Part shown: one piece after another, positions 8,223 to 55,015 of the stretch
How positions within the stretch are numbered: the stretch's first letter is position 1
Layout of the letters: every line of letters starts with the position of its first letter
From: a virus
Reading direction: 5' to 3' (one strand)
DNA: 64,000 nt
IMG/VR virus record: IMGVR_UViG_3300046170_000502
Coordinates: 1 to 64,000 of that record
The notes under the pieces: model-generated
What the model was told of the DNA's origin: nothing
Database searches by the model: none
What the model saw: only the letters and a program-made list of their open reading frames with translations
Program-made: the position numbers and the translations under genes

Positions 8223-8224
8223 AA

Positions 8225-8300: not shown

Positions 8301-8305
8301 CTTTA

Positions 8306-8399
8306 GGAGAGATGGCTGAGTTGGTTTAAGGCGGCGGTTTGCTAAACCGTTGAAGGGCTTATTGCCCTTCCGCAGGTTCGAATCCTGTTCTCTCCGCCA
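8306..8399 (+). tRNA. trnS: tRNA-Ser(GCT)
   Basis: GGAGAGA/TCTCTCC stem, loop TTGCTAA, long variable arm GAAGGGC-TTATT-GCCCTTC, TTCGAAT, CCA. Confidence 0.96.
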
Positions 8400-8440
8400 T
8401 TTTCCTTGACATTTTTTAAAAAATATGCTAAACTTAAATT

Positions 8441-8752: not shown

Positions 8753-8931
8753 GACCTTGGAGACATTGCAACTTGTTAGGTAAATTATGTATTGCGTGCG
8801 TGATCATAAATATCATTGTGTGCATACAATTTTTGAAAGTAAATCACACCTTATCTTTCTTGTATTTATTTTGGGCATTCTTTTGTGCAATGGGTACATA
8901 TTCTAAAAAATGTAAAAAACAAAATGGTTAA
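8749..8931 (+). CDS. Small membrane protein
   Basis: Two hydrophobic segments, coupled to neighbours. Confidence 0.45.
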   Translation: MRPWRHCNLLGKLCIACVIINIIVCIQFLKVNHTLSFLYLFWAFFCAMGTYSKKCKKQNG

Positions 8932-9451: not shown

Positions 9452-9458
9452 TGTATTT

Positions 9459-10160: not shown

Positions 10161-10167
10161 TAAAATT

Positions 10168-11016: not shown

Positions 11017-11440
11017 AATAAAAACAGGGATAACATTCTCAACCTTTGACCTTCTTCACTCTGGCCATATTGCCATGCTTCGTGAAGCAAAAGAGCAATG
11101 CGATTATTTAATTTGTGGATTACATGTTGACCCGCAGGTTGAGCGCCCACAGAAGAATGCGCCTATCCAGAGTATTGTAGAAAGATACATTCAATTATCG
11201 GCGGTTAAATATGTCGATGAGGTTGTTCCATATAATCTCGAAAAAGATTTGGCGGATATTTTATTAACTTACCCAATTAATGTTAGAATAATTGGCGCCG
11301 ATTATAAAGACGTTGATTTTTCAGCAAAACAGCTTTGTATTGACAACGATATAGAAATATACTATAATAGTCGAAGTCACGATTTCTCAAGCAGTGGTTT
11401 ACGAAAAAGAATCGCAGAAAAAGAAAATGCAAATAACTAA
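10994..11440 (+). CDS. Cytidylyltransferase (TagD/RfaE-like)
   Basis: STFDLLHSGHI (HxGH), LICGLHVDP, ERYIQLSAVKYVDEV, HDFSSS. Confidence 0.88.
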   Translation: MHYPNINKIKTGITFSTFDLLHSGHIAMLREAKEQCDYLICGLHVDPQVERPQKNAPIQSIVERYIQLSAVKYVDEVVPYNLEKDLADILLTYPINVRIIGADYKDVDFSAKQLCIDNDIEIYYNSRSHDFSSSGLRKRIAEKENANN

Positions 11441-12206
11441 AGAATTTATTGATAAACTATTAATTTTTGGCGCCGAGCTTTCGCAAGAAGTTTGTGAAAT
11501 ACAAAAGCGCGGTTTTGAAACTTTACAAAAAGACGACAAAAGCCCATTAACAGAAGCTGATCTTCATTCAAATAAAAGAATCTGCGAGTTTTTATCAGCA
11601 AACACAAGCGTTGCAAATATAATATCCGAAGAAAATAAAGAGATTAAATACGAAGAGCGCGTAGGATGGGAGTATTATTGGCTTATAGACCCCATAGACG
11701 GCACAAAAGAGTTCGTGAAGGGTGGAGATGACTTTTGTATTAATATCGCTTTATGTAAGCATAATGAGCCTATATTTGGCTATGTAGCTTGCCCCAAAAA
11801 GAAAGATCAATATTACGCTATACAAGACCGAGGTGCATTTAAAAACGGCGAACCGATTTACGCCAAATATTGTTATAATCCACAGGGTGAATCAATCAAA
11901 GTGGTTGCAAGTAAATCCCATTTAAATAAAGAAACAGAAGATTTCATTGAAAATCTAAAAAAAGACCATAAAGTGGAGACTTTAAATATTGGAAGCTCCT
12001 TAAAATTCTGCCTCGTTGCGGAAGGCAAAGCTCATTTATATCCCCGATTTGGTCTTACAATGGAATGGGATACCTGCGCTCCACAAATAATCGCCGAAGA
12101 AAGTGGGGCTACAGTATTAATTTCAGATACAAAAGAGCGATTGTCCTACAATAAAGAGAATCTTCTTAATCCCTTTTTTATAGTTTCTTCAAAAAGTTTT
12201 AAATAG
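11427..12206 (+). CDS. cysQ: 3'(2'),5'-bisphosphate nucleotidase (inositol monophosphatase family)
   Basis: SPLTEAD, ISEE, WLIDPIDGTKEF, GSSLKFCLVAEG, YPR.G.TMEWDTCA. Confidence 0.9.
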   Translation: MQITKEFIDKLLIFGAELSQEVCEIQKRGFETLQKDDKSPLTEADLHSNKRICEFLSANTSVANIISEENKEIKYEERVGWEYYWLIDPIDGTKEFVKGGDDFCINIALCKHNEPIFGYVACPKKKDQYYAIQDRGAFKNGEPIYAKYCYNPQGESIKVVASKSHLNKETEDFIENLKKDHKVETLNIGSSLKFCLVAEGKAHLYPRFGLTMEWDTCAPQIIAEESGATVLISDTKERLSYNKENLLNPFFIVSSKSFK

Positions 12207-37584: not shown

Positions 37585-37794
37585 GGAGAGGTAGATATAC
37601 TTCTCCTGTGGGTGACCGAATAAGCCTGTCGTGAGCGGGCTAAAGTATGCAGATCCCTGTGGTAGGGTTGGTAGAGTTCAATCGAATGAGCCAAATGACA
37701 ATACCATGTCTAGTCTGTAGTTTGAAGTAGGTACACAATGAACTGATGTTCACGCCGAAAAATTGGAGGTATACAGTAGTCCTTCCCCACGCCA
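37585..37794 (+). ncRNA. Candidate structured non-coding RNA (~210 nt) ending in GCCA
   Basis: GC-richer, no sense ORF, at least 5 hairpins incl. a GUGA tetraloop, GTGGG/CCCAC closing helix, own promoter, boxA and terminator. Confidence 0.6.
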
Positions 37795-37816
37795 TTTTCT
37801 TAATCATGCATTCTAG

Positions 37817-38737: not shown

Positions 38738-38966
38738 TGGATACTGCTACAATTATTATTGTTGCATTCATCATAGGCCTTGTCCGCGCCGTTCTAGAAA
38801 CAAAAAACGAGGATTTTTAGAAGCCAAATATTCTTCAGCCAAATAACACAACCAAATACCAATTATATATATTACAAATAAGGGGGAAACAAATAACAAT
38901 CCAAATAAATAAAGGAAGTAAAATGTAGATAAAATTAGAAAAAAAAGAATAAAATTAAAAATTACA

Positions 38967-39047
38967 TAAGTCGTTGTATATCAACAAGTTGCGGAAAATC
39001 CGCCTAGGCTTTTTTACGTAAGTCTTTGAAGCTCAACAACTTACAAC
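38967..39047 (+). repeat. Palindromic cassette repeat R1
   Basis: TAAGTCGTTG-N-CAACAAGTTG..CGCCTAGG..CGTAAGTCTTTG-N-CAACAACTTACAAC; promoter at 39074. Confidence 0.85.
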
Positions 39048-39108
39048 TATATTCAATTAAATGAAAAAAAAGGTTGACTTGCGGTAAAAACCTGTCATAC
39101 TTGTATAC

Positions 39109-39507
39109 ATGATTAAGACAAAGCCTAACGAAAAAAGATATAAGATTGACTTTGGCAGTCCTGTTTTTGTTTACAAAAATCTTCACAAAAAATGTTGGAG
39201 CATCAAGCAAAACGGATTGGTCAAGGCTCATACTAAATTATTAGCAATGCATAGTTGCACCTTCAAGGTTAATAAAAATGGGCGACAAAGAGTTTTAAAA
39301 GAACAGCGTAAAAATGTTCATGCAGGAATCGAGGGCTATATAGAGAATTGGCAAATGGGTGATTGGAGAGAATCTCATCCCACCGCACGACCTGTTTCAT
39401 ACAACCCATATAAGTATGAGAATTTTGTTGACAAGGACACGGAACAAATGGTAGACTATGCTATTGCCGTAAGATTAGAACCCAAACAAGTATTAGCAGT
39501 ATTATGA
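39109..39507 (+). CDS. Conserved phage protein
   Basis: VFVYKNLHKKCWSIK..GRQRVLKEQRKNVHAGI..V.YNPYK; MIKT start. Confidence 0.7.
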   Translation: MIKTKPNEKRYKIDFGSPVFVYKNLHKKCWSIKQNGLVKAHTKLLAMHSCTFKVNKNGRQRVLKEQRKNVHAGIEGYIENWQMGDWRESHPTARPVSYNPYKYENFVDKDTEQMVDYAIAVRLEPKQVLAVL

Positions 39508-39653
39508 ATGAAACACAAATGACCAAAACAAGTATCCAAAAAGAGATCATTGACCAATTTGACTATTTAAGTCCGAGAGAGTTAATGGTGATTTTCGAGT
39601 TAATCTTCGGAATGGGAGAGGTTCAACTAGATGAAGTAGATTGGAGTAAGTAA
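39504..39653 (+). CDS. Small hypothetical protein
   Basis: ATGA-coupled 49-aa ORF. Confidence 0.4.
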   Translation: MNETQMTKTSIQKEIIDQFDYLSPRELMVIFELIFGMGEVQLDEVDWSK

Positions 39654-39655
39654 TT

Positions 39656-39889
39656 ATGACACAAGCAAAAATTAGAGAAAACATTTTAAGCATCGTTCGA
39701 GGAGAAATGGCATACGCAGATCCAATGTCCAAGGTTTGCTTGGAGCAGAACGAGCGTCACCCCGAAAAGTTTCCACTTGGAAGTACATTTCAATCAGCCG
39801 AAGAAGTTTTAGAAGACATCATTTTAAGTTTGACATCATTGCAAAATGAGCTTAGAATAGAGTCTTCATTTCAATCAGCACAACTATAA
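39656..39889 (+). CDS. Hypothetical protein
   Basis: ORF chain. Confidence 0.5.
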   Translation: MTQAKIRENILSIVRGEMAYADPMSKVCLEQNERHPEKFPLGSTFQSAEEVLEDIILSLTSLQNELRIESSFQSAQL

Positions 39890-39905
39890 ACACAAGGAAA
39901 AAATC

Positions 39906-40313
39906 ATGGGATTAGATCAATACGCATACGCACGACCACCACGCAAACGCAATTCAGACAACGATATTCAAGTTGCCGAGTGGAGAAAACACAATCGCTT
40001 ACAAGGTTGGATGGAACACCTTTGGCAAAGCAAAGGTTGTCCAAACGCAAATGAAGATGGTGATTTTAATTGTGCAGTATTACCACTCACATCTGAAGAT
40101 ATTGATTCTCTTGAAGATGCGATTCTTAACTTTGAGTTACCCCAAACGGACGGATTCTTTTTTGGTTCTGATTCTTATTTTTGGACTGACGAAAATGATG
40201 AACCTCATGCCGATAACGATTATTGGTACAAAGAATCTGACTTGACATTCATCAAAGAAGCAAGAAAAATGATTGAGAAAAAGCACAGAATTTTTTACTC
40301 TTCTTGGTATTAA
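39906..40313 (+). CDS. Conserved phage protein
   Basis: MGLDQY, WRKHN.LQGW, NC..LPLT, LP.TDGFFFGS. Confidence 0.7.
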   Translation: MGLDQYAYARPPRKRNSDNDIQVAEWRKHNRLQGWMEHLWQSKGCPNANEDGDFNCAVLPLTSEDIDSLEDAILNFELPQTDGFFFGSDSYFWTDENDEPHADNDYWYKESDLTFIKEARKMIEKKHRIFYSSWY

Positions 40314-40351
40314 GGCTTGACTTTCGCTGAAAATCTGACAAACTATACATT

Positions 40352-40549
40352 ATGAGCATGACACTAGAAACACCACAACAAATTAACGCATTCCGATTAA
40401 GGACTCTCGCAAGAGGAATAAAATTGGAAATGAATGGATTAAAGATGTCGAGAGGTAGAAGTTGCTACTCGATTGTAAAATCTGAATTCGGATTCAAGGG
40501 CAACAAGCAATCTGTTCTTGACCAATTACTCAACCACATGGAGGGATAA
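40352..40549 (+). CDS. Conserved small phage protein
   Basis: GIKLEMNGLKMSRGRSCY..KSEFG.KGNK..VL.QL. Confidence 0.65.
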   Translation: MSMTLETPQQINAFRLRTLARGIKLEMNGLKMSRGRSCYSIVKSEFGFKGNKQSVLDQLLNHMEG

Positions 40550-40551
40550 GG

Positions 40552-40761
40552 ATGAACGAATATATTGATGCAGTATGCGAGGGACAACCTCTTGACAAAC
40601 CAAGTTTCAACCAAGATTCAGAGCAATGGGAATTGTACTTTGAAGAGTCTGCCACGCCTTGGCATCCTTATGACTCAAGGGATTTAATCGCAGTAAGTTT
40701 TGACTCTGCCCAAGAAGCAGAACAATCTTACAACCACTATTCACAACCTAACCAAGGATAA
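40552..40761 (+). CDS. Small acidic protein
   Basis: ORF chain. Confidence 0.5.
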   Translation: MNEYIDAVCEGQPLDKPSFNQDSEQWELYFEESATPWHPYDSRDLIAVSFDSAQEAEQSYNHYSQPNQG

Positions 40762-40764
40762 GAT

Positions 40765-40929
40765 ATGCGAAATTCTCGAATTGAAAATCTTAGGAATAAA
40801 GTTCGCAATATGGGCTACGCTTTGGCTCAAGCTGAATTGCGAGGCTTGAGGGGAGAAGAATTGTTTGCTAAGAAATTGGCTCACAACCTACTTCTTGGCG
40901 AACTTTACTCTCTCGAAAAAAGGGTATAG
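40765..40929 (+). CDS. Small hypothetical protein
   Basis: 54-aa ORF before hairpin. Confidence 0.45.
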   Translation: MRNSRIENLRNKVRNMGYALAQAELRGLRGEELFAKKLAHNLLLGELYSLEKRV

Positions 40930-40936
40930 TTAAAGG

Positions 40937-40964
40937 GGCGGGCTTGGGAAAACCCAAGCTCGCC
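40937..40964 (+). terminator. Strong GC hairpin (probable terminator) abutting R2
   Basis: GGCGGGCTTGGG-AAAA-CCCAAGCTCGCC; weak U tail. Confidence 0.6.
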
Positions 40965-41045
40965 TTAGCCTTTGTTATTCAACGACTTACGAAAAATCGC
41001 CCTGGCCGGTTTGGCCTAACTCATTGATACTAAGTAACTTACAAC
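40965..41045 (+). repeat. Palindromic cassette repeat R2
   Basis: CAACGACTTACG..TCGCCCTGG..TAACTCATTG..ACTTACAAC; tandem promoters at 41073 and 41177. Confidence 0.85.
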
Positions 41046-41241
41046 AATCTTTATTTTTATGAAAAAAAAGGGTTGACATTACATCATTTTCTGTCATACT
41101 TGTATACATAAGCGAGATAACTGAACTTAAAAAAAATTAGTCGAAACAAAAAAAACTTAATCGAAGAAAAAAAAGCTTGACAAAAACCAAAAACTTTAGT
41201 ATAATTAACCCATCAAAGACGATAAACCAACACTAAAAATT

Positions 41242-41979
41242 ATGAATAAAAAAATTGATCTCTCCGTATGTGGCACAAAAAGAATTGACTTTAGCGAAGT
41301 AAAGTCCGTACAGACTCCCGAAAAGACTGAGTCTTGGCAACCAATCGGTCATGCGTTCCTTGTTGATCGTGTGCAAAACCAAATCCAAGACAATGGTTGG
41401 GAAATTGTTGACACTTACCATTCTCTTCACCGATTCGGTCAGCGTTACTTCGGTCTCTTTCACATCAAAAACACAGGTTCCGATTCTGATGATCGTGGCA
41501 CAATTCTTGGTCTTCGCAACTCGCACGACAAATGCTTTCCAGCAGGTTTGTGCATGGGCAATGCTCCATTTGTTTGCTCCAACCTTATCTTCACTAACGA
41601 AGTGACTCTTGCAAGACGGCACACAAAAAACATTTTGACTGACTTGTCTCAAGTTATCGCTCGCACTCTCGGCAAGATGACTGAGACATGGGCAAGCGAT
41701 GAGAAACGCATCGAAGCATACAAGGAGTATGAACTTGGCAACGAGCAAGCTCATGACCTTGTTATCCGTGCATACCAAAATGGTGCGATCAGCAAGGGTA
41801 AAATCGCTGATGTAGTTGAGCAATGGCACAAACCCGAACATGATGACTTTTCTGCTCGGAATATGCACTCATTGTATAACGGCTTTACTCATGTCCTTAA
41901 AGGTGGAGTTCATGCCTTACCAAATCGTTCTCTCGCATTGCATGGTGTTCTTGACTCCGAAGTCGCACTTGTAAAGTAA
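41242..41979 (+). CDS. DUF932 (TIGR03299-like) phage/plasmid protein
   Basis: RYFG, LGLRNSHDK, FVCSNL, LYNGFT. Confidence 0.75.
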   Translation: MNKKIDLSVCGTKRIDFSEVKSVQTPEKTESWQPIGHAFLVDRVQNQIQDNGWEIVDTYHSLHRFGQRYFGLFHIKNTGSDSDDRGTILGLRNSHDKCFPAGLCMGNAPFVCSNLIFTNEVTLARRHTKNILTDLSQVIARTLGKMTETWASDEKRIEAYKEYELGNEQAHDLVIRAYQNGAISKGKIADVVEQWHKPEHDDFSARNMHSLYNGFTHVLKGGVHALPNRSLALHGVLDSEVALVK

Positions 41980-42027
41980 TCATTCTTAATCAAAAACCAA
42001 AACACAAACCTAACAAAAATTAAAATT

Positions 42028-42258
42028 ATGAAAAATCAAGCAAAACTCAAAAATGTAGTTGATAGTCTCAAAGGTCGTTTCGTTTCTCTTCTTGTCAAGC
42101 AAGGTGAGCAACGCAAGGTCTTCTCTGCTAAAGTCAATAGCGTGACTTCTCGTCATGTTATGTTTTCGGACATGAATGGAGCAAATCGTCGAGTTAATCG
42201 TCGCCATGTTCTTCGTGCGACTTGTGCTAACAAATCTTTTAAGAGGTCAGTTGGTTAA
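42028..42258 (+). CDS. Small basic protein
   Basis: ORF followed by terminator. Confidence 0.55.
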   Translation: MKNQAKLKNVVDSLKGRFVSLLVKQGEQRKVFSAKVNSVTSRHVMFSDMNGANRRVNRRHVLRATCANKSFKRSVG

Positions 42259-42284
42259 TCGCAAGCTCGGAAACGAGTAGGCTC

Positions 42285-42310
42285 AAGCCTCCCTTCGGGG
42301 AGGCTTTTTT
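42285..42310 (+). terminator. Rho-independent terminator (UUCG loop)
   Basis: AAGCCTCCC-TTCG-GGGAGGCTT + T run. Confidence 0.9.
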
Positions 42311-42331
42311 GCATCTTGAATTATTGTTTCG

Positions 42332-42415
42332 TAAGTCGTTGCAGGCCAGGCAGTTACGAAAAACGGGCCTAGGCTTTTTGGCGTAAGTTGTTGGATATCA
42401 ATGATATCCGCAACA
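42332..42415 (+). repeat. Palindromic cassette repeat R3
   Basis: TAAGTCGTTG..CAGTTACG..GGCCTAGGC..CGTAAGTTGTTG..CAACAAAA; promoter at 42447. Confidence 0.85.
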
Positions 42416-42481
42416 AAACTTTTTTTACTTTTTTTGCATTTAGGGGTTGACTTTGCACCTTATTCTGTCATAATGGAATAC

Positions 42482-43225
42482 ATGATTAAGACAACACTTC
42501 TCACATCAGGTAATCAAAAAATTCTCAAAGGCGAGAAATTAGGTTACATAACGAAAGGCATTCACTTTGCCCCAGCAAGTCTTTCAGGCTTCGAAGTTTG
42601 CCGTTGGCGTTCTAAAGGTTGCACGGCATCTTGCCTCAATACGGCAGGTCGTGGACAAATGAATTCAATTCAAGAATCTCGTGTCGCCAAGACAAAGTTG
42701 TTCTTCAATCATCAGTTAGACTTTCTTGCGAAGCTATCGAAAGAAATTTCTAATTCAATTAAGAGTGCAACGAAGAAAGGAATGAAATCGGTTTTCCGAC
42801 TTAATCTCACAAGTGATGTAATGTGGGAATCTGTTTTCTTTAACGAAGATCAGCCAAAGTCAATCTTTGATAAATTTTCGGATGTTCAGTTTTATGATTA
42901 TACGAAATCATTTAAAAGAATGTGTTCTTTTCTCGACAAGCCTTTTATTAAGGGCGAGGCAAAGTTTCCCTCTAATTACCACTTGACTTTTAGTCGCTCG
43001 GAAACAAACGATACAAAATGCGAGATGGTTCTTTCAATGGGTGGCAATGTTGCCGTTGTATTTCGCAATCAATTACCTAAAACATGGAAAGGTTTTGAGG
43101 TTGTCAATGGTGATGATAATGACCTTCGCTTTCTTGATAAGAAAGGTGTTGTTGTTGGGCTTATCGAAAAAGGCATGGCAAAGAAGGATTCAACGGGATT
43201 TGTTCAAGAAGGGGTAAATTCATGA
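42482..43225 (+). CDS. gp88-like phage protein
   Basis: C..GCTASCLNTAGRG, FRLN.TSD, FYDYTK, NYHLTFSRSE, GGNVAVVF, GD..DLRFLD..GVVVGL..KG; MIKT start. Confidence 0.75.
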   Translation: MIKTTLLTSGNQKILKGEKLGYITKGIHFAPASLSGFEVCRWRSKGCTASCLNTAGRGQMNSIQESRVAKTKLFFNHQLDFLAKLSKEISNSIKSATKKGMKSVFRLNLTSDVMWESVFFNEDQPKSIFDKFSDVQFYDYTKSFKRMCSFLDKPFIKGEAKFPSNYHLTFSRSETNDTKCEMVLSMGGNVAVVFRNQLPKTWKGFEVVNGDDNDLRFLDKKGVVVGLIEKGMAKKDSTGFVQEGVNS

Positions 43226-43389
43226 GTGAAACATATTACGATTCAGCCGAAGATTTAATGATTAGTCAATCAAGAGCGTTTGATGAACTATCAAAGCATG
43301 GTTGCCAAGAGATACAGCAATTTCTTGAGGACATGGGAGATAAGGAGGAGTATGAAGCACAAAAAGTATTGGAATGGTTAGGTTACTAA
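43222..43389 (+). CDS. Conserved small phage protein
   Basis: YYDSAEDL.IS..RA..EL..HG..F..D.G..Y.AQ.VL.WLGY. Confidence 0.6.
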   Translation: MSETYYDSAEDLMISQSRAFDELSKHGCQEIQQFLEDMGDKEEYEAQKVLEWLGY

Positions 43390-43467
43390 ACGCTTGGTTA
43401 TGAACTAGTTAGGGCAAAAAGCCCTGGGCGATTTCGCGCAAGTCTTTGGCGATCAAGGCTTTACAAC
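43387..43467 (+). repeat. Palindromic cassette repeat R4
   Basis: TAAACGCTTG..GTTAGGGC..GCCCTGGGCG..CAAGTCTTTG..CAAGGCTTTACAAC; promoter at 43495. Confidence 0.75.
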
Positions 43468-43532
43468 TATTTTCATTTTTTCTGCATTTAAGGGTTGACT
43501 TAGTTTGAGATTCTGACATACTAATACTTACC

Positions 43533-43632
43533 AACACGATCAAACTAATCTGCAAATTAGTGGTGATTAAGAGAGGTGCGGATTGCAGTCCTAATTATAC
43601 TCTTGTGGGTTCGACTCCCTCCGTGTTTGGTA
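43533..43632 (+). ncRNA. tRNA-like / degenerate tRNA element
   Basis: AACACG/CGTGTT closing stem, T-arm GGG-TTCGACT-CCC, two TGCA-loop hairpins; no canonical D arm or CCA. Confidence 0.35.
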
Positions 43633-43694
43633 TCATTTTATTATTCACTAAAAAAACGCTTGACTTCACAAAAAATTCTGTCATACTATTAATT

Positions 43695-43820
43695 ATGAAA
43701 GCGAAAAAAATTAAGATAAGACAATCCATTCTCTTTACAAAAGCTCGCCCTTTCAAGATGAAAAACAAAATTCTTGATCGGAAACTAAAACACAAAACCA
43801 AATTGACTTATGTATCTTAA
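43695..43820 (+). CDS. Small very basic protein
   Basis: TTGACT(43660)-CATACT-N7-ATG. Confidence 0.45.
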   Translation: MKAKKIKIRQSILFTKARPFKMKNKILDRKLKHKTKLTYVS

Positions 43821-44052
43821 CGACCCAAACCACTTGCAAGTCCAAGATGTTGACTCGCTCGAAGCAAACGAATTAGTTATGGCATTCATCCATGACAATA
43901 TGATCGAGCCGATGACCGACAAGAATATGCTTGACAATGATCAACTTTCAATGTTAAATGTAGTTGGTAGTGCGTTAAAGTGCATTGCTCAAAAAGCTCA
44001 CGCTTACGAAACTCTCACAGAATCGCAAGACTCATCTCATTACAGAAACTAA
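43810..44052 (+). CDS. Hypothetical protein
   Basis: ORF chain. Confidence 0.5.
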   Translation: MYLNDPNHLQVQDVDSLEANELVMAFIHDNMIEPMTDKNMLDNDQLSMLNVVGSALKCIAQKAHAYETLTESQDSSHYRN

Positions 44053-44253
44053 ATGAACAAAGAAAAACATTTAATTACGAAAAGCAAAGACGGATGCGTT
44101 GTCCTTATTAAAGCAGAGAAGAAGACTGAACAGACCGATGTCTTTATCTCGCAAGCAACATTCGAGAAGAACATCTCAAGTAAAACATTCGTAAAACACG
44201 CAACACTCACACACAACAACAATCCAATATATATCTACCATGAAGACCTTTGA
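44053..44253 (+). CDS. Hypothetical protein
   Basis: ORF chain. Confidence 0.5.
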   Translation: MNKEKHLITKSKDGCVVLIKAEKKTEQTDVFISQATFEKNISSKTFVKHATLTHNNNPIYIYHEDL

Positions 44254-44572
44254 TGACTTAAATTTTAACTCTCACCCAAGTGCAAAAGATTTGGGAGTCC
44301 AAGCAAGTATAACTTTCGATAATGGTTACGCTATTAGCGTTGTATCCAATGTGGATGGAGGTCAATGCTTCTATGGCAATCACCCCAACACTTACGAAGT
44401 CGCAGTATTCAATCAGCGTGGAGATTTTGTTCCATTGCAACCTTTTGACGATGTTCTTGGTTGGCAGGATAGAATGCAAGTTTCCAAGCTAATGAGTCAA
44501 TTTCAACAAGACGGAGTTAAACACGAAAAGCTTTTGCATTCAATCAAACAAGATAAACAAAACAATGACTAG
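44240..44572 (+). CDS. Conserved phage protein
   Basis: MKTFDDL.F..H, FDNGY.ISVV, YG..TYEVAV, V.GW. Confidence 0.65.
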   Translation: MKTFDDLNFNSHPSAKDLGVQASITFDNGYAISVVSNVDGGQCFYGNHPNTYEVAVFNQRGDFVPLQPFDDVLGWQDRMQVSKLMSQFQQDGVKHEKLLHSIKQDKQNND

Positions 44573-44726
44573 TTATCAAATACTTAAAAACGGAGAGCCT
44601 GCCGGAATTGTTGGCACGCTCGATTATATTGTCAACGCCATTCGTAATCTCGAATCAGATCTTGATCGAGTAACTGAACATTCACCTTATACAATTGAAT
44701 TGGTCAAACGAACGGCAAAAATGTAA
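44565..44726 (+). CDS. Small hypothetical protein (last rightward early gene)
   Basis: 53-aa coupled ORF. Confidence 0.45.
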   Translation: MTSYQILKNGEPAGIVGTLDYIVNAIRNLESDLDRVTEHSPYTIELVKRTAKM

Positions 44727-44808
44727 ATATCAAATACAATTCTGTGGGCAGCAAATACTAAATACTCAAATACCAAATATTTAAATAACAAATACAAATA
44801 CATAAATA
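44725..44808. repeat. AAATA(C) micro-repeat cluster at the convergence point
   Basis: About 10 AAATA units in 85 bp. Confidence 0.6.
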
Positions 44809-44829
44809 AGGATTTGAGCTAAGAAATCC

Positions 44830-44906
44830 GAATGTGTTGAGTACCAACGACTTGCGAAAAAAAACCTAGGGCGGTTTTCCCTAGGTCATTGATAGTCAGC
44901 GACTTA
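44830..44906 (-). repeat. Palindromic cassette repeat R5
   Basis: CAACGACTTGCG..CCTAGGGCGG..CCCTAGGTCATTG..CAGCGACTTA; same orientation as R6, no promoter. Confidence 0.8.
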
Positions 44907-44908
44907 TG

Positions 44909-45100
44909 TTAAAAGTCGTATTGATCGTGGTAGCCCCAGTCTACATCTTCATTTTCAGAGAATTCTTCTAGAGCCTTGCGGTCTGACTCTTCCAGTTCTT
45001 CCCTGGCAAGCTGGTCAAGCAGTGCTTGACGCTCATCGAGATCGACATCGGTAATGCCGTGGGCGTGAGAGAGGCGGGTGAGTGAGTCATTGTTTTCCAT
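44909..45100 (-). CDS. Small very acidic protein
   Basis: Sole gene between R5 and R6; promoter at ~45135. Confidence 0.55.
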   Translation of the reverse strand: MENNDSLTRLSHAHGITDVDLDERQALLDQLAREELEESDRKALEEFSENEDVDWGYHDQYDF

Positions 45101-45151
45101 AATTCTAATCTAGCAAAATCGCAGATCTTTGTCAAACTTTTTTTTCATTTT

Positions 45152-45233
45152 GCTGTAAGTTGTTTACAACCAACGAGTTACGAAAAAACGACTTGGGCGG
45201 TTTTCCCTAAGTCATTGACTTGCAACAACTTAG
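45152..45233 (-). repeat. Palindromic cassette repeat R6
   Basis: Reverse complement aligns with R1. Confidence 0.85.
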
Positions 45234-45350
45234 GAAAAACTAAACTTTTCTCTTGCCTCACAAAGAGATTGTGCAATTAAAAAGCACAATCAGTTAAGCC
45301 CCTGAAGATTCCAATTAACGATGCGATTATCATAATTGTGACCAAATCCA

Positions 45351-45524
45351 CTAGGACATTGACCTTTCTAACTCTTGGATTTTGTTATCAATGTCGATTT
45401 GCACGGCTTGAATTTGGCTCGCTTCTTCTTGCTTGCCAAGTCTCAAGGCATTGACTCTTTGAATTGTCAACGCTTGAAGCGTGCTGATTAATGTATCAAT
45501 TTTTTCTGTTATTGCTTTGTTCAT
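45351..45524 (-). CDS. Small coiled-coil protein
   Basis: Start MNKAITEK after the -10 box. Confidence 0.5.
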   Translation of the reverse strand: MNKAITEKIDTLISTLQALTIQRVNALRLGKQEEASQIQAVQIDIDNKIQELERSMS

Positions 45525-45561
45525 GCTATTATTATACCATATTGAGGGCGACTTGTCGAGA

Positions 45562-45849
45562 TCAATCTTCAAAGATTGCTCGCATGGATGGGCTGACTGA
45601 CTCCATATCGTGGAGGTTCTCGTCATTGTCGAAGTCGTCATCCTCTTCGGCTTTATCTTCGGATGAAGCCAATTCGGAAACCTCGTCCTCAACATCTCTT
45701 TGAGTTGCTTCGAGCAAACCATGCTCAACGACCAATTCCTCAGCCATAATTTCGGCTTTCATGTCTTGAATGAAGTTAGACACACTTTTAGAAACAGGTG
45801 CATCTTTTGCGTTTTCGATTGCTTGGCGAATGAGATCAATGTTATTCAT
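45562..45849 (-). CDS. Very acidic small protein
   Basis: About 28 D/E in 95 aa; promoter at ~45885. Confidence 0.55.
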   Translation of the reverse strand: MNNIDLIRQAIENAKDAPVSKSVSNFIQDMKAEIMAEELVVEHGLLEATQRDVEDEVSELASSEDKAEEDDDFDNDENLHDMESVSPSMRAIFED

Positions 45850-45888
45850 ATTTTAGTATTATGGATTAATTATGTGAGTTTGTCAAAC

Positions 45889-46092
45889 TTATTTTGTAAA
45901 TTCTTTGAATATTTTTCTAAGCTCTTGAACCTTTTCAAGAAGTCCTTTGGTGGTCATTTCTTCGGTCAAGGTTCTGTCGGAATCCTTTTTTTCTGTTTGC
46001 ATATAATGAAGAAAGTCAATCGCTCCCTCCATTTGTGCAAGCTTAGTTCCGAAGTCGATTTCTTTTATTATTGTTTCTTTTGTCTTAATCAT
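45889..46092 (-). CDS. Small helical protein, paralog family A
   Basis: MIKT start; LAQMEGAI.FL..RTLTEE. Confidence 0.55.
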   Translation of the reverse strand: MIKTKETIIKEIDFGTKLAQMEGAIDFLHYMQTEKKDSDRTLTEEMTTKGLLEKVQELRKIFKEFTK

Positions 46093-46217
46093 ATACCTAC
46101 AAGGTAACACATAAAAAGGAGTTTGTCAAATTTTTTCTCACTTACCTTTCAACTATGTTTTTGCACAATTCGACTGCTATTTTCTTGCAAAGTTGGCACG
46201 GAATCTGTATCGATTTT

Positions 46218-46299
46218 GTTGTAAGTCGTTGCCGCTCAACGAGTTACGGAAAACTCCGGAGGGCGGTTTGCCCTAAGTCGTTGGTTACTAACACTTTAC
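46218..46299 (-). repeat. Palindromic cassette repeat R7
   Basis: GTTGTAAGTCGTTG..CAACGAGTTACG..GGGCGG..CCCTAAGTCGTTG. Confidence 0.85.
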
Positions 46300-46300
46300 G

Positions 46301-46495
46301 CTAGTCAACCAAGATTAACGGGTCAGGCAGTGGAGTGCTAGCAATGTACGCCTCTAACTCGCTAACCTCTGCTTGTGCGATTCTGTCGAGATCTGCTTGA
46401 GCCGCTATTATGCACATTCTAGCTGATGAAGAACCATTTTCTGCGGCTTCGAGATTTTCGTCAATTATTTTTTGTAGTCTTTGTTTTTCTGTCAT
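46301..46495 (-). CDS. Hypothetical protein
   Basis: MTEK start behind a leaderless promoter. Confidence 0.5.
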   Translation of the reverse strand: MTEKQRLQKIIDENLEAAENGSSSARMCIIAAQADLDRIAQAEVSELEAYIASTPLPDPLILVD

Positions 46496-46543
46496 AAGTA
46501 TAATCTAATCTATTTTTTTGTTTCTGTCAAGCGTGAATGTGAA

Positions 46544-47089
46544 TTATTTTAAGAAATGATTGAATGCACTTTCAAGTTTACCTTTGTTGAGATTTTCTTT
46601 TCTGTCGCGAGGTACGAAATTTGACCAATGATTTCCTCCACCACTTTGTCGCTCTTGTATGTGATCAATGTTCCAAGCGTTGTCTACATTTTTATTTGTC
46701 CAATTAGACCAAGACTTGCCGTTTTCAAGTTGGACATCTAGGAATATTCTAAACTGATCCAATGAGCATCCTAAAGTTTTTTTATTTCCTCCGAGCATAC
46801 CAACTTTATCGGAGAATAATTTTCTTTCTTGTGATTCTGTCAACATTTTCACTTTTGGATCGTGGGCGATTTTGTTTCTTATTCTTTTGTATTTTTCTTT
46901 GATGTTTGCAATTTCTTTCTTTTTTACTTCGATCATCTTTTGCAATTTTTCGATTCCCTCAAGCTCTGATTGGATTTGTGCTTGCTCTGAGATTTTAAGC
47001 ATATCTCCGAGATCGAGATCTGTTCTGTTACTCTTTACAGAGTTTCTTCCGTGATGTTTATTCCAAGCGTCAGATATTTTAATTTTCAT
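46544..47089 (-). CDS. HNH endonuclease-like protein (same family as 14543..15163)
   Basis: LGCS..F..L..Q..G.SW.N..WNIDHI..NHWSNFVP..EN..K. Confidence 0.7.
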   Translation of the reverse strand: MKIKISDAWNKHHGRNSVKSNRTDLDLGDMLKISEQAQIQSELEGIEKLQKMIEVKKKEIANIKEKYKRIRNKIAHDPKVKMLTESQERKLFSDKVGMLGGNKKTLGCSLDQFRIFLDVQLENGKSWSNWTNKNVDNAWNIDHIQERQSGGGNHWSNFVPRDRKENLNKGKLESAFNHFLK

Positions 47090-47368
47090 ATTTTTTATTT
47101 TTAGCAATTAACTTTATAGTATTTTATATTATAGTAATTTTATTTTGTGTCAAGCTTTTCTTTACTTACATCTGAAAAAAGATCGATTTTCTTTTCTGTC
47201 ATAGATTTATACATAAAGAAGAAAGCAGGAATAAAAGTTAAAAGAAGCAAGATGTCGTAATTCATAATTTATTTTTGTTATATTAATTTAATGTTATATA
47301 TACAATGTATCAGAAAATGAAGTAAAGTCAAGCGTTTTTTAAAAAAAAGATTAATTATTTTTACTTTT

Positions 47369-47450
47369 GTTGTAAGTCGCTGGCCATCAAGGAGTTGCGA
47401 AAAATCGCCTAGGAATTTTTTCCCTAAATCGTTGGCATTCAGCGACTTAG
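47369..47450 (-). repeat. Palindromic cassette repeat R8
   Basis: GTTGTAAGTCGCTG..CAAGGAGTTGCG..CGCCTAGG..CCCTAAATCGTTG..CAGCGACTTAG. Confidence 0.85.
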
Positions 47451-47468
47451 GAAAAACTGGAGTTTTGT

Positions 47469-47624
47469 TTACTTACTCGAGAGAATAGGAGACTTGTACT
47501 TTACGCTTAAACGATTGGCTATTTCAATAGCTTGTGCGTAAGTTCTTGCTCCGTCAATTAGCTCGCCATTAAAGACGACATTAAACCAATTTGAGAAATT
47601 CGGGTTTCTGAATACATTTATCAT
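47469..47624 (-). CDS. Small hypothetical protein
   Basis: Start MINVFRNP behind promoter. Confidence 0.5.
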   Translation of the reverse strand: MINVFRNPNFSNWFNVVFNGELIDGARTYAQAIEIANRLSVKYKSPILSSK

Positions 47625-47671
47625 TTTATTATTAAAGCAAATTTTTGTTATTGTGTCAAACTTATTTGAGA

Positions 47672-47944
47672 TTATTTTTCCCAAATTTGTTGAATGTAGT
47701 ATTGAGCATTGTCGCCATCTTTGCGTTGAATGCTTGTTTGGAATTGCAACTTTGGTTGAAGCGTCCGAATCATGCGAGCAACTTTTCGCCTTACTTCGTG
47801 CTTGTCTTCAGCTTGTATAGTAATTGTGTGATGTGTCTTGTCGATGTCAATGTACGACTTAGTGTTACTATTCCATAAGGAAATTGCTTCACCATCGAGG
47901 GAAGAGACATGAACGCTTGCAATGAATGTTTTATTCTTAATCAT
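47672..47944 (-). CDS. Hypothetical protein
   Basis: MIKN start behind a leaderless promoter. Confidence 0.55.
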   Translation of the reverse strand: MIKNKTFIASVHVSSLDGEAISLWNSNTKSYIDIDKTHHTITIQAEDKHEVRRKVARMIRTLQPKLQFQTSIQRKDGDNAQYYIQQIWEK

Positions 47945-48004
47945 ATATATAATCTAATCTAGTTTTGGTTGGAAGTCAAGTTTTATTTTACTTATTTTTA
48001 CTTA

Positions 48005-48202
48005 TTATTGAAAGACAACATTAAAACGAAACTGATTTAAACCTTCGTCTTTCATGATCTTATTAAGATGAGATTGACTTGATGCAGTCCGAACCCTTGG
48101 GCGATCATTGCCGTTTGAGTCGATGCCTTGATCGAAAATCTTTACTGACCAATGGGTTGACCATTCTTTAATGCGAACTTGTATTTTATTATTCTTAATC
48201 AT
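48005..48202 (-). CDS. Hypothetical protein
   Basis: MIKN start behind a leaderless promoter. Confidence 0.55.
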   Translation of the reverse strand: MIKNNKIQVRIKEWSTHWSVKIFDQGIDSNGNDRPRVRTASSQSHLNKIMKDEGLNQFRFNVVFQ

Positions 48203-48240
48203 ATGTATAATCTAATGGAATTATTTGCAAAAGTCAAACT

Positions 48241-48468
48241 TTATTTTTCATTATTTAGATCACGCATTGCTTGCAATGCTTTTCTTGCTATTTGAACAGC
48301 GTGTAATGCGTCCATGATTGTTTCAGCTTGCGTGAATGTACCTTGCCAATTGTCAGAATTTGATTCACGAACCAAGTGATTCAAGTTGCCTTCGGCTTTA
48401 GCTAAGCCCATTCCAAGGTCGATTTTTAAGTTTAATTCTTTTTTTATTTCTTCTTTTGTCTTAATCAT
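48241..48468 (-). CDS. Small helical protein, paralog family A
   Basis: MIKT start; LAKAEGNL.HL..TFTQAE..DAL.A.Q. Confidence 0.55.
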   Translation of the reverse strand: MIKTKEEIKKELNLKIDLGMGLAKAEGNLNHLVRESNSDNWQGTFTQAETIMDALHAVQIARKALQAMRDLNNEK

Positions 48469-48540
48469 ATATACAATGTATCAGACAAAACGGCAAAAGT
48501 CAAGTATTATTTTGATTTATTTTAACTTTTTTTTCATTTT

Positions 48541-48622
48541 GTTGTAAGCTGTTGGTATTCAACGAGTTACGCGAAAACGGCTAGGGCGATTTGCCCTAAG
48601 TCGTTGATCTTGTGCTACTTAG
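48541..48622 (-). repeat. Palindromic cassette repeat R9
   Basis: GTTGTAAGCTGTTG..CAACGAGTTACG..CTAGGGCG..CCCTAAGTCGTTG..CTACTTAG. Confidence 0.85.
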
Positions 48623-48927
48623 AACACAAGAGGATCGGGTAATGAATTAGGCGATGCGAACCAATCGGATGAGTCAATTACTTGCCCGTTTAGTATAGGC
48701 TCGAATTTGAATTGGCAAACATCTGCATTCGCTATGCCGTTGACGCGTTCGCGTGTGGTGGGTGTGTTCCATCCTGCAAGCGACCATCTGACCAAGCCGT
48801 CAGCGTCACGCTTGACAATCGCGTTGCCATGTAACCAAACGGTGTTGCCGTCTGTGGTGGTGTTGCCAACTGTCTTGGCTTCGCCGCGTTCAAATGCTTG
48901 TTTAATTTGTTGTGTTACTTTTCGCAT
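48619..48927 (-). CDS. Conserved phage protein
   Basis: MRK.T, V.LHGNAI, S.AGW.T.TT.ER.N. Confidence 0.65.
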   Translation of the reverse strand: MRKVTQQIKQAFERGEAKTVGNTTTDGNTVWLHGNAIVKRDADGLVRWSLAGWNTPTTRERVNGIANADVCQFKFEPILNGQVIDSSDWFASPNSLPDPLVF

Positions 48928-48985
48928 GATTCTTTTATTGCTGTTATGATTCCTATTATGAATGATATTATTATAATGTCAAGCA

Positions 48986-49207
48986 TTATTTCAAGCCGTC
49001 TCTTAATTCGCTTAACTCTTTTGTTACCTTGCTGAATTCTTTATGAGCTTGTTGCAATGCGTTTAATGCGTCGGCAACGGCTTCACCTTGCGTAAGGGTT
49101 GCCATGTCAGATTCAGCAAGAAACTTTAGGTTGCCTTTAGCTTTGGACATTGCAAGCGAGCATTCGAGAGTCGGATATCTTTTTATTTTTTTATTTGTTT
49201 CTGTCAT
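48986..49207 (-). CDS. Small helical protein, paralog family A
   Basis: MSKAKGNL.FL..TLTQGE..DAL.A.Q. Confidence 0.55.
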   Translation of the reverse strand: MTETNKKIKRYPTLECSLAMSKAKGNLKFLAESDMATLTQGEAVADALNALQQAHKEFSKVTKELSELRDGLK

Positions 49208-49505
49208 AGTATAGAGAGTAAAGAGTTTTTATTGATGCGTCAAGCTTTAAGCGAATAAAGGATGAATTCTAATGTTGCGAGGATGCCAAGCCATTGTTTT
49301 CTGTGATCTATACAGACGACAAAGCACTTGTTTACCTAGGCGATCATCTGTAAACTCTTTGATCACTTGGTAAGTATTATTATCTCTTGCGAGTACGACA
49401 TCATTTTTTTTATACATATTTTATATTGGTTATTTAATTAATCTTATATATACAATCTAACACATTCTGACCAAAAGTCAAGCCCATAGCAAAAAAACTT
49501 TGTGT

Positions 49506-49533
49506 CGTAAACTATTGATTATTATATACTTAT
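49506..49533 (-). repeat. Partial cassette repeat R10
   Basis: Single degenerate arm pair CGTAAACTATTG..ATACTTATG next to promoter at ~49480. Confidence 0.4.
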
Positions 49534-49773: not shown

Positions 49774-50506
49774 ATGGCTCGAAAACGTAAAAAAACCGAG
49801 ATAACAGATGAAGATGAGATCAAAAAGATCGCATCTTCTCTGCACAAAAGAAATGTCAAGCTGAAAAAACTAAGCCTTAACTGACAAACAAATGGCTTTA
49901 TTAAAGATAATATTTGATAAAGAAACCAGTATTGTATTCATTAGTGGCCCTGCGGGCACAAGTAAAACTTATATAGCAATATATGGAGCATTACAATTAT
50001 ATAATATGAATAATGATCGCGGCATCACATATGTACGCACAATCGCAGAAAGTGGCGAAAAAAGCCTTGGCGCACTTCCTGGAGAAATGGCTGAGAAGAT
50101 CAATCCATATATGATGCCTATGAATGAAAAGCTTGATGAGCTTTTGGTTCCTGGCCAAGCCAGTATTTTAAAAGAAAAGGATATTGTAAAAGGTATGCCT
50201 GTAAATTACCTTCGCGGAGCCAGTTGGATGGACGAAATCGTAATCGCGGACGAATCTCAGAATTTCACATTCAAAGAGCTTACTACTTTAATGACCCGAC
50301 TTGGTCGCGGCAGTAAATTAATCATTTGTGGCGATCCAATGCAAAGCGACATCAATGGAAAAAGTGGATTTGCAGATATGTATTCTATTTTTGATGATCA
50401 AGAAAGCAAACAACGAGGTGTACATACATTTCATTTTGGAGCAGAAGATATAATGAGAAGTGAAATACTAAAATTTGTAATAACAAAAATACAAAATAAA
50501 AAATAA
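49774..50506 (+). CDS. phoH: PhoH-family ATPase with apparent +1 frameshift near 49877
   Basis: GPAGTSKT, YLRGASW, IADESQN, TRLGRGSKLIICGDPMQSD, DIMRS; deleting one C gives ..KLKKLSLTDKQMALL. Confidence 0.88.
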
Positions 50507-53048: not shown

Positions 53049-53308
53049 GGGTTTTAGGTTGCTTTTTTATATTGTTCTTAAGTTCTTGCTCATCTAAGCT
53101 AAGGAATATAAAGCTAAATCCAGCGCCAGTTAAAAATGAATTTAATTCAATAGATTCAAATAGTGATTTGACTATTTCTCCAGACGAGTACAATTTTTAC
53201 AAGCAGGCTGAATACAATTCAATCGATCCTATTGGATGGTTTTTTATTATTTTTGGATTAGTATTTCTATTTTCTGTTGTTTTAGGGTATTTTGTAAAGA
53301 GTAAATGA
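53045..53308 (+). CDS. Lipoprotein with C-terminal TM (unimolecular-spanin-like) and EF-hand-like loop
   Basis: LFLSSC lipobox; DSNSDLTISPDE; C-term TM. Confidence 0.45.
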   Translation: MRVLGCFFILFLSSCSSKLRNIKLNPAPVKNEFNSIDSNSDLTISPDEYNFYKQAEYNSIDPIGWFFIIFGLVFLFSVVLGYFVKSK

Positions 53309-53895
53309 GTACAAGTTTAGATATTATTACCGTGCTAACAGGCGTTGTCTCTGCCGCAACTGCCGTATTAGGTGTTTGGTTGAAAGTGAAGTATGACGAG
53401 AGAAAACATAAGCAATTAAACTACGATCCGAGTTTACACAGCAATGTCGTTACCGCCTTGGAGTTCATCGTGAGGGAAACTAGTGCGGATAGAGCTTATA
53501 TACTAGAATTTCACAATGGAGAGCAATATTTTTCAGGCAGGGGGCAACAAAAATTAAGCTGCACATATGAATGTGTGAATGACGGAATAAGCGTTGAGTG
53601 TCAAAATCTCCAAAATATAAGGGTGTCAAATTTTCACGGATTAATGAATTCTATTTCCAGGCAAGAAACATTTTCGTGTCCAGATACAGAAGAGTATATA
53701 GGCGATTTTACGTTCAAGTCCTTGCTTCAGTCTAAAGGTGTAGAAAGTATGTTTGCCAGACCAATAAAAACTTTGAATGGAAAAATTATAGGAATACTTT
53801 GCTTGGAGTATGTAAAAGAAAAGCGTAAGTGGGGGCATGATTCCGAGGAATTTATAAAAAAGCAAGCGAATCTCGTTAGTGGGTATTTGATATAA
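53305..53895 (+). CDS. Single-TM + GAF-like protein (T4 holin T-like architecture)
   Basis: N-term TM; ADRAYILEFHNG..KLSCTYE; PIKTLNGKIIGILCLEY. Confidence 0.55.
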   Translation: MSTSLDIITVLTGVVSAATAVLGVWLKVKYDERKHKQLNYDPSLHSNVVTALEFIVRETSADRAYILEFHNGEQYFSGRGQQKLSCTYECVNDGISVECQNLQNIRVSNFHGLMNSISRQETFSCPDTEEYIGDFTFKSLLQSKGVESMFARPIKTLNGKIIGILCLEYVKEKRKWGHDSEEFIKKQANLVSGYLI

Positions 53896-53922: not shown

Positions 53923-54294
53923 ATGGCTTTTTCTTATTGTCCTCATTGTGGTTTTAAAAATATGTACTCCTTGCAAGCGCCAAAATTTTGCGGCGGCTGC
54001 GGGGAAGGTTTGAGTTTATTAAGCGCTTCCAAGCAAATAAAAACAGCGACTTCTGTCCCAACAACTCAAAGTAAACAAAAACGAAAAGCGCTTAGTCGAG
54101 CTCCTATAGAGCTGGAAGACGATCCTGATGGATTAGATATTTACGAAATTCCAGATATAACTAAATTATCTTATTCTATCCAAATTGATAAAAATAAATT
54201 CAACTTAAAGGATATAATCCCCCTTGAGGATTTAGAAAATTTCAAAGAAGAGCCCAAAAAGAAAAAGAGCCGTGGCCGACCAAGAAAAAAGTAA
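53923..54294 (+). CDS. Zinc-ribbon protein
   Basis: YCPHCG..FCGGCG; basic C-tail. Confidence 0.6.
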   Translation: MAFSYCPHCGFKNMYSLQAPKFCGGCGEGLSLLSASKQIKTATSVPTTQSKQKRKALSRAPIELEDDPDGLDIYEIPDITKLSYSIQIDKNKFNLKDIIPLEDLENFKEEPKKKKSRGRPRKK

Positions 54295-55015
54295 TTATAC
54301 TTACGAGGATAAGGCGAAAGAAATTGACCAAGAAATAAAAAAGAGAAGAGGCAAATGGTTTCTAGATTCATTGGCCTGGTTTGACTTTGAAGATGTAGAG
54401 CAAATTATAAAAGCTCACATATATAAAAAATGGCATCAATGGGATCAAAGCCGATCCCTTAAGCCTTGGATGAATAAGATTATAACCAATCAAATGAAGA
54501 ATATTCTGCGCAATAATTACAGTAACTTTGTTAGACCCTGTCTTAACTGCCCGTTTAATCAGTCTTGCGCCACAAAAGACGGAGGGGAGGCTTCGTTATG
54601 CGGATTCACGAAGAGTGGCTTGCAGGATTCATCGTGCCCTCTTTACTTGAAGTGGGAAAAAACCAAAAAGTCCGCTTACGGCATAAAGATGGCGCTAGCT
54701 TTAGATAATCATAGTCACGAGGTTCAAGCTATGGAGGATAATAATTTTGACATTATGGAGTCTCAGGGGAAACTTAATAAATGCATGAAGCGAGAATTAT
54801 CCAAAAAGCAGTATCTTGTTTACGAGTTATTATTCATCAAGCATATCGACGAAGAAGAGGTCGCTCAAAAGATGGGGTACAAAACAAGCGAAAAGGGCAG
54901 GAAAGCTGGGTATAAGCAAATAAAAAACCTTAAAAAAATCTTCAAGCAAAAAGCTCAAGAAATTTTAAAAAATGAAGATATTATTTCTGTCAGGGGAGTT
55001 ATACCATGGAGCTAA
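54272..55015 (+). CDS. Phage sigma70-family (ECF-like) sigma factor with Cys-rich insertion
   Basis: Region-2-like DFEDVEQII..W.QWD.SRSLKPWMNKII.NQMKNILR; region-4 HTH LSKKQY.VYELLF..DEEEVAQKMG. Confidence 0.7.
   Translation: MADQEKSNYTYEDKAKEIDQEIKKRRGKWFLDSLAWFDFEDVEQIIKAHIYKKWHQWDQSRSLKPWMNKIITNQMKNILRNNYSNFVRPCLNCPFNQSCATKDGGEASLCGFTKSGLQDSSCPLYLKWEKTKKSAYGIKMALALDNHSHEVQAMEDNNFDIMESQGKLNKCMKRELSKKQYLVYELLFIKHIDEEEVAQKMGYKTSEKGRKAGYKQIKNLKKIFKQKAQEILKNEDIISVRGVIPWS

Follow-up and report, generated by a model that had tools for sequence, protein, structure and literature searches.

PeSL-like boundary elements with a rigid, phased triple palindrome in the early region of an uncultured marine phage

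Introduction

The closest described counterparts of the elements reported here are the promoter-early stem-loop (PeSL) cassettes of T4-type phages (Arbiol et al. 2010, PMC2839356; Comeau et al. 2014, PMC4122927). Exchange of such cassettes is illustrated by ORF192, which is flanked by two PeSLs in phage RB49, where phi1 has a single PeSL instead, with crossovers in or beside the stem-loop (PMC2839356; PMC4122927). Here, a stretch of 64,000 nucleotides from an uncultured marine phage (IMG/VR record IMGVR_UViG_3300046170_000502, positions 1 to 64,000; hereafter the window) was analyzed, and we describe a family of palindromic elements in its early region. In our view the elements belong with the PeSL-like composite boundary modules, here in an unrelated phage lineage, and their distinguishing feature is a rigid, sequence-conserved triple palindrome that is phased to the neighboring promoter.

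Several traits are shared with PeSLs. Both are composite intergenic motifs of ~100 bp, placed after one stop codon and before the following start in an early region rich in ORFans, and both combine a palindrome, an AT-rich tract and a strong sigma70-like promoter, which in our case is predicted from the sequence. In both, indels or replacements between close relatives have their junctions in the motif, and the difference at ORF192 between RB49 and phi1 is mirrored here by a gene named e1. The differences concern the palindrome and its setting. A PeSL is a simple GC-rich terminator stem-loop, whereas the element described here is a triple dyad kept as sequence; separate terminators precede some of its copies, and a single copy of the nine scores as a terminator itself. 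In addition, the element keeps helical phase with the −35 box, and many of the genes downstream are leaderless, whereas the PeSL motif ends in a Shine-Dalgarno sequence and an ATG.

Results

A family of triple palindromes in the early region

In the region from 38.9 to 49.6 kb, small ORFan genes form two convergent arms, and nearly all of these genes lack a family assignment. A repeat search, a motif search and a hidden Markov model (HMM) built from the window copies agree on nine full copies of the element (R1–R9) and one half copy, all within this region. Four full copies lie on the plus arm (R1, 38967–39043; R2, 40965–41041; R3, 42332–42408; R4, 43387–43463) and five on the minus arm (R5, 44830–44906; R6, 45156–45232; R7, 46222–46298; R8, 47373–47449; R9, 48545–48621). 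No further copy was found outside the early region by the motif and HMM searches of the 64-kb window. The arm motif CAACGACTTA, allowing at most one mismatch, was matched 19 times compared with 3.8 ± 1.8 times in shuffled sequences, and all 19 matches are inside elements.

The nine full copies share one 77-bp layout, 10-5-10-27-10-5-10, in which arm L1 (10 bp), a loop (5 bp), arm R1 (10 bp), the center (27 bp), arm L2 (10 bp), a second loop (5 bp) and arm R2 (10 bp) follow one another and are succeeded by a CAAC(A)AA tail. The consensus is TAAGTCGTTG-N5-CAACGACTTA-GGGcAAAyCGCCCTAGgCgTTTTtgCG-TAAcTCGTTG-N5-CAACaACTTA-CAACAA. It forms a triple palindrome, a central A-tract/GC/T-tract palindrome standing between two 25-bp palindromes whose centers are 52 bp, or five helical turns, apart. 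Each copy scores 17–32 bits higher with the HMM along the direction of local transcription than in reverse, and the two sets of elements are therefore inverted about the convergence point at 44.8 kb. The half copy (49504–49532, minus strand) has one degenerate hairpin and a CGAC tail, and is located upstream of the first promoter of the minus arm (49454–49481). Half elements with a single degenerate hairpin and the tail are also present in three related records (G003, G005 and G006), there between a full element and a promoter.

The units are tightly packed in the order of stop codon, element, A-rich spacer of ~20–40 bp and promoter. An element starts at the upstream stop codon or within 0–15 nt of it; the first TAA of R4 is the stop codon of c2, and that of R9 is the stop codon of i3. 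Promoters follow R1 (39074–39101), R2 (41073–41100), R3 (42447–42474), R4 (43495–43522), R6 (45107–45135), R8 (47304–47331) and R9 (48475–48503), with the −35 box 21–41 bp beyond the last arm. The promoter of R7 is ~92 bp downstream, and R5, at the convergence point, has none. An earlier reading of the sequence alone (hereafter the original prediction) had described about ten palindromic elements of ~80 bp, with loops of 6 or 7 nt, which divide the early region into promoter-headed units and form two sets inverted about 44.8 kb in keeping with transcription, one of them being a partial copy. Apart from the loops, which are 5 nt, this description holds, including the lack of a promoter at R5 and the greater distance at R7; R8, which had also been listed as distant, is no further from its promoter than R9.

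Early promoters, as predicted by sequence match, take the form TTGAC-N16/17-(CATACT/TAGATT/TACATT), with an extended TG and an A8 tract. At no fewer than nine of them an ATG is found 6–8 nt past the −10 hexamer, so the mRNAs look leaderless. Starts of this type are at 39109 (gene a1), 40352 and 42482 (c1) and, on the minus strand, at 45100, 45849, 46495, 47944, 48202 and 48468 (h1). Several leaderless genes have the start ATGATTAAGA(C)AA in common, encoding MIKTK, MIKNK or MIKTT.

Constraint on sequence rather than on a helix

Palindromes at the ends of transcription units invite an explanation at the level of RNA, in which the palindrome would be transcribed at the 3′ end of a unit and act as a terminator or attenuator, an RNase III-type processing site or a 3′ stabilizer, that is, as the direct equivalent of the PeSL stem-loop. 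The start of the elements at or near stop codons and their stable predicted folds are in line with such a function. So are the likeness of the A-tract/GC/T-tract center to a bidirectional terminator, which is how the center of R5 scores, and the stem-loop consensus of the PeSLs of phage nt-1, A3-4G3-loop-C3T3-4 (PMC4122927). Among 54 distinct copies (alignment A2), two helix models were evaluated, one of local hairpins and one with long-range pairing. Paired cells amount to 72.5% and 73.6% in the two models, which is lower than the shuffled means of 74.3% and 76.0%, and the 26–28% of cells that are unpaired rise to 30% in one helix. No covariation was found in either the local-hairpin or the long-range model, double changes being fewer than in the shuffles, and none of the arm helices has an excess of G·U over A·C on the transcribed strand.

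The pattern of conservation is of another kind. Columns 33 and 67 of the alignment (arm positions R1-7 and L2-4) hold C/C or G/G in 49 of the 54 copies and are thus unable to pair. The positions CAA..A.TTA in the arms and AAA..CC..TTT in the center are invariant across old paralogues, and indels are almost absent among the copies. Taken together, the lack of covariation and of wobble excess, the unpaired symmetric positions, the invariant positions and the scarcity of indels are the signature of a recognized sequence with fixed geometry. The alignment points to arms that are kept as sequence, and not as an RNA or cruciform helix. We also considered whether copies with G/G at columns 33 and 67 are inverted cores of the C/C type; position weight matrix scores with those columns masked were mixed, which indicates no simple flip.

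Canonical intrinsic terminators were found by a consensus scan directly upstream of two elements and separate from them. One, with a 14-bp GC-rich stem (40935–40966, plus strand), abuts and overlaps the first arm of R2, and another (42285–42306, plus strand) is 25 bp upstream of R3; canonical terminators also precede several copies of a second element type, found in relatives and described below. Inside the elements, the same scan scored only the center of R5 (a stem plus T8), and the other eight of the nine copies have no hairpin followed by a U-tract. The elements appear not to be the terminators. A small boxB-like hairpin, TAGGGC-AAAYC-GCCCTA, is present in many copies and could speak for RNA with its weak G·U excess (22 vs. 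7). The boxB-like reading was rejected because the R2 and R3 families lack the hairpin or have another in its place, and the excess is only slight. A boxA/nut-like reading of the CAACAA tail was likewise abandoned, since the tail motif shows hardly any enrichment and bears only a weak likeness to the boxA-like leader of the manA RNA gene. Given also that phasing to the −35 box (see below) has no rationale at the RNA level, we consider RNA an unlikely seat of the primary function.

Conservation and divergence among relatives

According to a pattern scan, 12 contigs of IMG/VR contain the motif, and six of these records (G001–G006) were fetched whole. Five of them (G001, G002, G003, G005 and G006) have elements at the same gene junctions as the window. 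Neighboring proteins in G005 are only 43–90% identical to those of the window. Orthologous elements of the window and G005 share 77% identity, compared with 60% at the third codon positions of neighboring genes and 79% for coding DNA overall. The higher identity of the elements than of third codon positions and the shared junctions indicate that the elements are under purifying selection and are not recent selfish insertions.

G004, a more distant relative, and three further contigs have a shuffled gene order and lack the 25-bp arms, and the central palindrome persists. The element of this type, (T)TGGCA-taa-AAATCGCCCGCCGATTT-cg-TGCCAA, lies between GC-rich terminator hairpins and A-tract/TTGAC promoters. 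The flanking arms therefore vary by lineage, being TAAGTCGTTG-N5-CAACGACTTA in the window type and TTGGCA...TGCCAA in the G004 type, and the central palindrome is common to both. A relic of a G004-type arm (CCGTGCCAACTTTG) was observed in the window beside R7 (46188–46201). A shorter element, TTGGCAtaaAAATCGCCCGCCGATTTcgTGCCAA, occurs in distant relatives (L032 [G004], 1095–10475; also L039 and L044–L046), and we take both strands of its arms to read like a sigma54 −24/−12 promoter (TGGCAT-N5-TCGC and TGGCACG-N4-CGGC).

Helical phasing to the early promoters

Distances between the last arm and the −35 box group at 25, 35 and 46 bp, and two longer classes are seen at 97 and 110 bp. For a statistical estimate, window-type and G004-type elements were pooled and reduced to 25 element–promoter pairs below 80% identity. 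The element center is 36/37, 47/48, 59, 67–70, 76–80, 131 or 144–146 bp from TTGAC. The mean resultant length is 0.68 at periods of 10.5–10.8 bp, with a maximum of 0.71 over the range 10.0–11.5 bp, and reaches ~0.80 for the 19 pairs within 100 bp. In Monte Carlo simulation, none of 5000 random sets was as phased as the observed set of related copies (p < 0.0002). Moreover, R1 and its G005 orthologue differ by exactly 10 bp in their spacing to the promoter.

Relative to the promoter, the central palindrome is near −94/−104/−115 in window-type elements and near −71/−82/−94 in G004-type elements, and the proximal 25-bp palindrome is near −67/−77/−88. Class I activators and Fis-type sites act from such positions. 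Phased upstream sites are known from CRP at class I promoters (−61.5, −71.5, −82.5 and −92.5), from Fis together with the UP element at rrnB P1 and from the four p4 sites of phage phi29. The elements resemble these arrays in having palindromes at integral helical turns upstream of the −35 box, beside an A-rich, UP-like tract, and in the fixed spacing of multiple sites. They differ in that the sites are further upstream, the same module stands at about ten promoters of one phage, and the cognate protein is only proposed.

The spacing can also be viewed as a property of the DNA itself, without a dedicated protein: phased A-tracts and palindromes, curved or prone to form cruciforms, would boost or insulate strong early promoters and buffer supercoiling between units. 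The spacers are indeed rich in A-tracts, the spacing classes are 10–11 bp apart, and, with negative supercoiling, arms of 10 bp with loops of 5 nt could be extruded. A tendency to curve or to form cruciforms does not by itself require positions to be invariant across old paralogues, and arm L1 is often too degenerate for a hairpin, which makes such a purely structural role, in our judgment, distinctly improbable.

Gene cassettes exchanged at the elements and promoters

Breakpoints between the window and its relatives were located by BLAST. Fifteen are in elements, 30 in promoter modules and 22 elsewhere, whereas these classes make up 7.8%, 10.5% and 81.7% of the region, respectively, which amounts to an enrichment of 2.9-fold for elements and 4.3-fold for promoter modules. 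The promoter with the ATGATTAAGA(C)AA start is the most frequent mosaic junction between relatives.

Two cases trace the exchange to the inside of an element. The e1 cassette (44909–45135, minus strand), comprising a gene for 63 aa and the promoter at 45107–45135, is located between R6 and R5 both in the window and in G006, and G002 shows this arrangement as far as its contig reaches. The cassette is missing from G001, L014 and L026, where a fused 1.5x element takes its place, R6 contributing its second hairpin as the first hairpin of R5. In G001, the chimeric element G001_18142 has the R8 orthologue as its left part and R7 with its flank as its right part, and is followed by ~860 bp of different small open reading frames (ORFs). 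Such junctions indicate that recombination within copies has added, removed and swapped gene cassettes. The likeness to PeSL cassettes in the original prediction is therefore apt, as cassette content differs between relatives and junctions map inside the repeats, both in the fused 1.5x element at e1 and in the chimeric copies.

The same observations might be accounted for by a dedicated system of site-specific cassette capture, comparable to an integron attC array, or by a selfish repeat of the kind of repetitive extragenic palindromes (REP) with their associated tyrosine transposases (RAYT) or miniature inverted-repeat transposable elements (MITE). Cassettes have been gained and lost with junctions inside elements, and the palindrome is imperfect with one position systematically mismatched; like attC sites, the elements are imperfect palindromes that bound small gene cassettes. 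attC sites, in contrast, are kept in structure and not in sequence, their cassettes are promoterless and IntI is adjacent, and all three are contrary here, where every cassette has its own promoter. The tyrosine recombinase family (PF00589, Phage_integrase) is absent from the contigs of five relatives, and no recombinase family turned up among the window ORFs scanned, which did not amount to a search of the whole genome and did not include HUH/Y1 or serine recombinases. Because no recombinase was found, the integron-like capture put forward in the original prediction is unsupported. Breakpoints are, besides, commoner in promoters than in elements, and the copies are confined to the early region rather than dispersed through the genome and are held at orthologous sites under purifying selection instead of forming polymorphic insertions. 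Capture by a dedicated system, or a selfish origin, thus seems very improbable.

One indel of another kind involves g2, an ORF of 187 aa (46544–47107, minus strand) with a weak C-terminal match to the HNH endonuclease and endonuclease VII families (E 0.002–0.01). It is absent from G001, and that indel is not bounded by elements. Probably, g2 is a free-standing homing endonuclease gene.

Other features of the window

The phage encodes rIIA/rIIB, DNA ligase, PhoH, three tRNAs and a manA RNA. The closest match of its large terminase in the phage collection, from Clostridium phages, is only ~24% identical. A megablast search with the early region gave no match to a cultured close relative, and a more sensitive blastn search returned a single match, 165 bp at 69% identity, in a Pelagibacter phage. 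The manA RNA (RF01745, 83.5 bits; 37585–37795, plus strand) is preceded by a boxA-like GATCTTTAACA leader and by a sigma70-like promoter of its own. AT-rich repeats of the AAATACCAAATA type are found upstream of R1 (38841–38878), at the convergence of the early arms (44755–44807) and at the 3′ end of the PhoH-like gene (50450–50487). The segments 2611–12206, 53305–53895 and 54272–55015 jointly contain a sulfation/sugar gene cluster (GT25, a sulfotransferase, APS kinase, an RmlD-like reductase and a CysQ-like inositol monophosphatase), along with a GAF-domain protein and, as a possible phage sigma factor, a protein that contains sigma-70 region 2.

A clue to the host was sought by a pattern scan of genome contigs with a 19-nt pattern composed of the end of arm R1 and the first half of the element center. 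The 18 matches are at about chance level and were treated as coincidence. Seven of them look like one orthologous locus, all in metagenome-assembled genomes of Planctomycetota (L047, L049–L052, L054 and L061), with a conserved terminator-like hairpin, GGACTTAGGGCAAATCGCCCTRAGTCC, followed by a T-run and containing the search pattern. This hairpin follows a tRNA-Leu(CAG), as called by ARAGORN, in two of four loci, and a third locus was called as a dubious tRNA-Ala. The motif was not found after the tRNAs of the phage itself.

Discussion

Of the explanations weighed above, the one that we regard as most probable, with about even confidence, is that a regulator binds duplex DNA upstream of the early promoters and that cassette shuffling by general recombination is a by-product. 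Protein binding and its effect on transcription are what we infer; the elements themselves, with their fixed geometry, selection, phasing, internal junctions and lack of helix covariation, are observed. The element would be a cis-acting boundary module, placed where one early unit ends and ahead of the sigma70-type promoter of the unit that follows. It would offer a platform of duplex DNA with fixed geometry, on the same helical face as the promoter, to a sequence-specific dimeric or tetrameric protein from the host or the phage, and the bound protein would modulate the early promoters in a coordinated way, by activating them or by shutting them off. Ordinary homologous recombination would use the elements as crossover points, because about ten near-identical copies lie within 10 kb, and the promoter modules even more. 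Such crossovers would delete, insert and replace gene cassettes, as in the PeSLs of T4-type phages. The original prediction had also named operators with four sites for a phage regulator as an alternative, and among its proposals this one fits best with a sequence conserved without covariation, a fixed geometry and phasing to the −35 box.

Several points weigh against binding by a regulator. The copies share ancestry, so the 25 pairs are not fully independent, and the phasing could stem from the A-tract spacer, as curved DNA changing in units of 10–11 bp, instead of a bound protein. R5 has no promoter, and many internal early promoters have no element. Predicted folds range from −18 to −30 kcal/mol; given read-through, the elements would be transcribed and fold strongly, and might then have an extra role at the RNA level. 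Finally, no binding protein was identified, the early ORFs having no recognizable DNA-binding domain, and no HU/IHF homologue was found in the relatives.

Candidates for the binding protein were considered nevertheless. The conserved (T)CAA-N4-TTA of the arm coincides with the conserved positions of the IHF consensus, WATCAANNNNTTR. The full consensus is present in 20 of the 54 copies and in two of the nine window elements, and with no HU/IHF gene in the relatives IHF was not adopted as the binder and is a lead only. In Escherichia coli, paired REP palindromes around an IHF site form the bacterial interspersed mosaic elements (BIME) known as RIP. The elements described here are similar to these in being composite extragenic palindromes of ~80–100 bp at gene ends, and differ from them in being limited to a 10-kb phage region and in the minority of copies with a full IHF consensus. 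The small conserved early proteins h2 and a3 returned nothing informative from a protein atlas.

A more specific proposal, which we put forward tentatively and think somewhat less probable than its negation, is that the elements are operators of a single regulator that switches the whole early ORFan regulon on or off from phased upstream sites, in which case the lineage-specific arms may co-evolve with a phage protein.

The elements show that the cassette logic of T4-type PeSLs recurs in an unrelated, uncultured marine lineage, with a far more elaborate palindrome, and the comparison with metagenomic relatives documents the gain, loss and replacement of cassettes with junctions inside the motif. 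This suggests that the boundary motifs of hyperplastic early regions can be true regulatory protein sites, and it makes the element a concrete DNA bait for finding a global regulator of early genes in an uncultured phage. If the proposal of a single regulator is true, the early region would be a phage-wide, enhancer- or operator-like regulon whose control sites double as the substrate of cassette shuffling.

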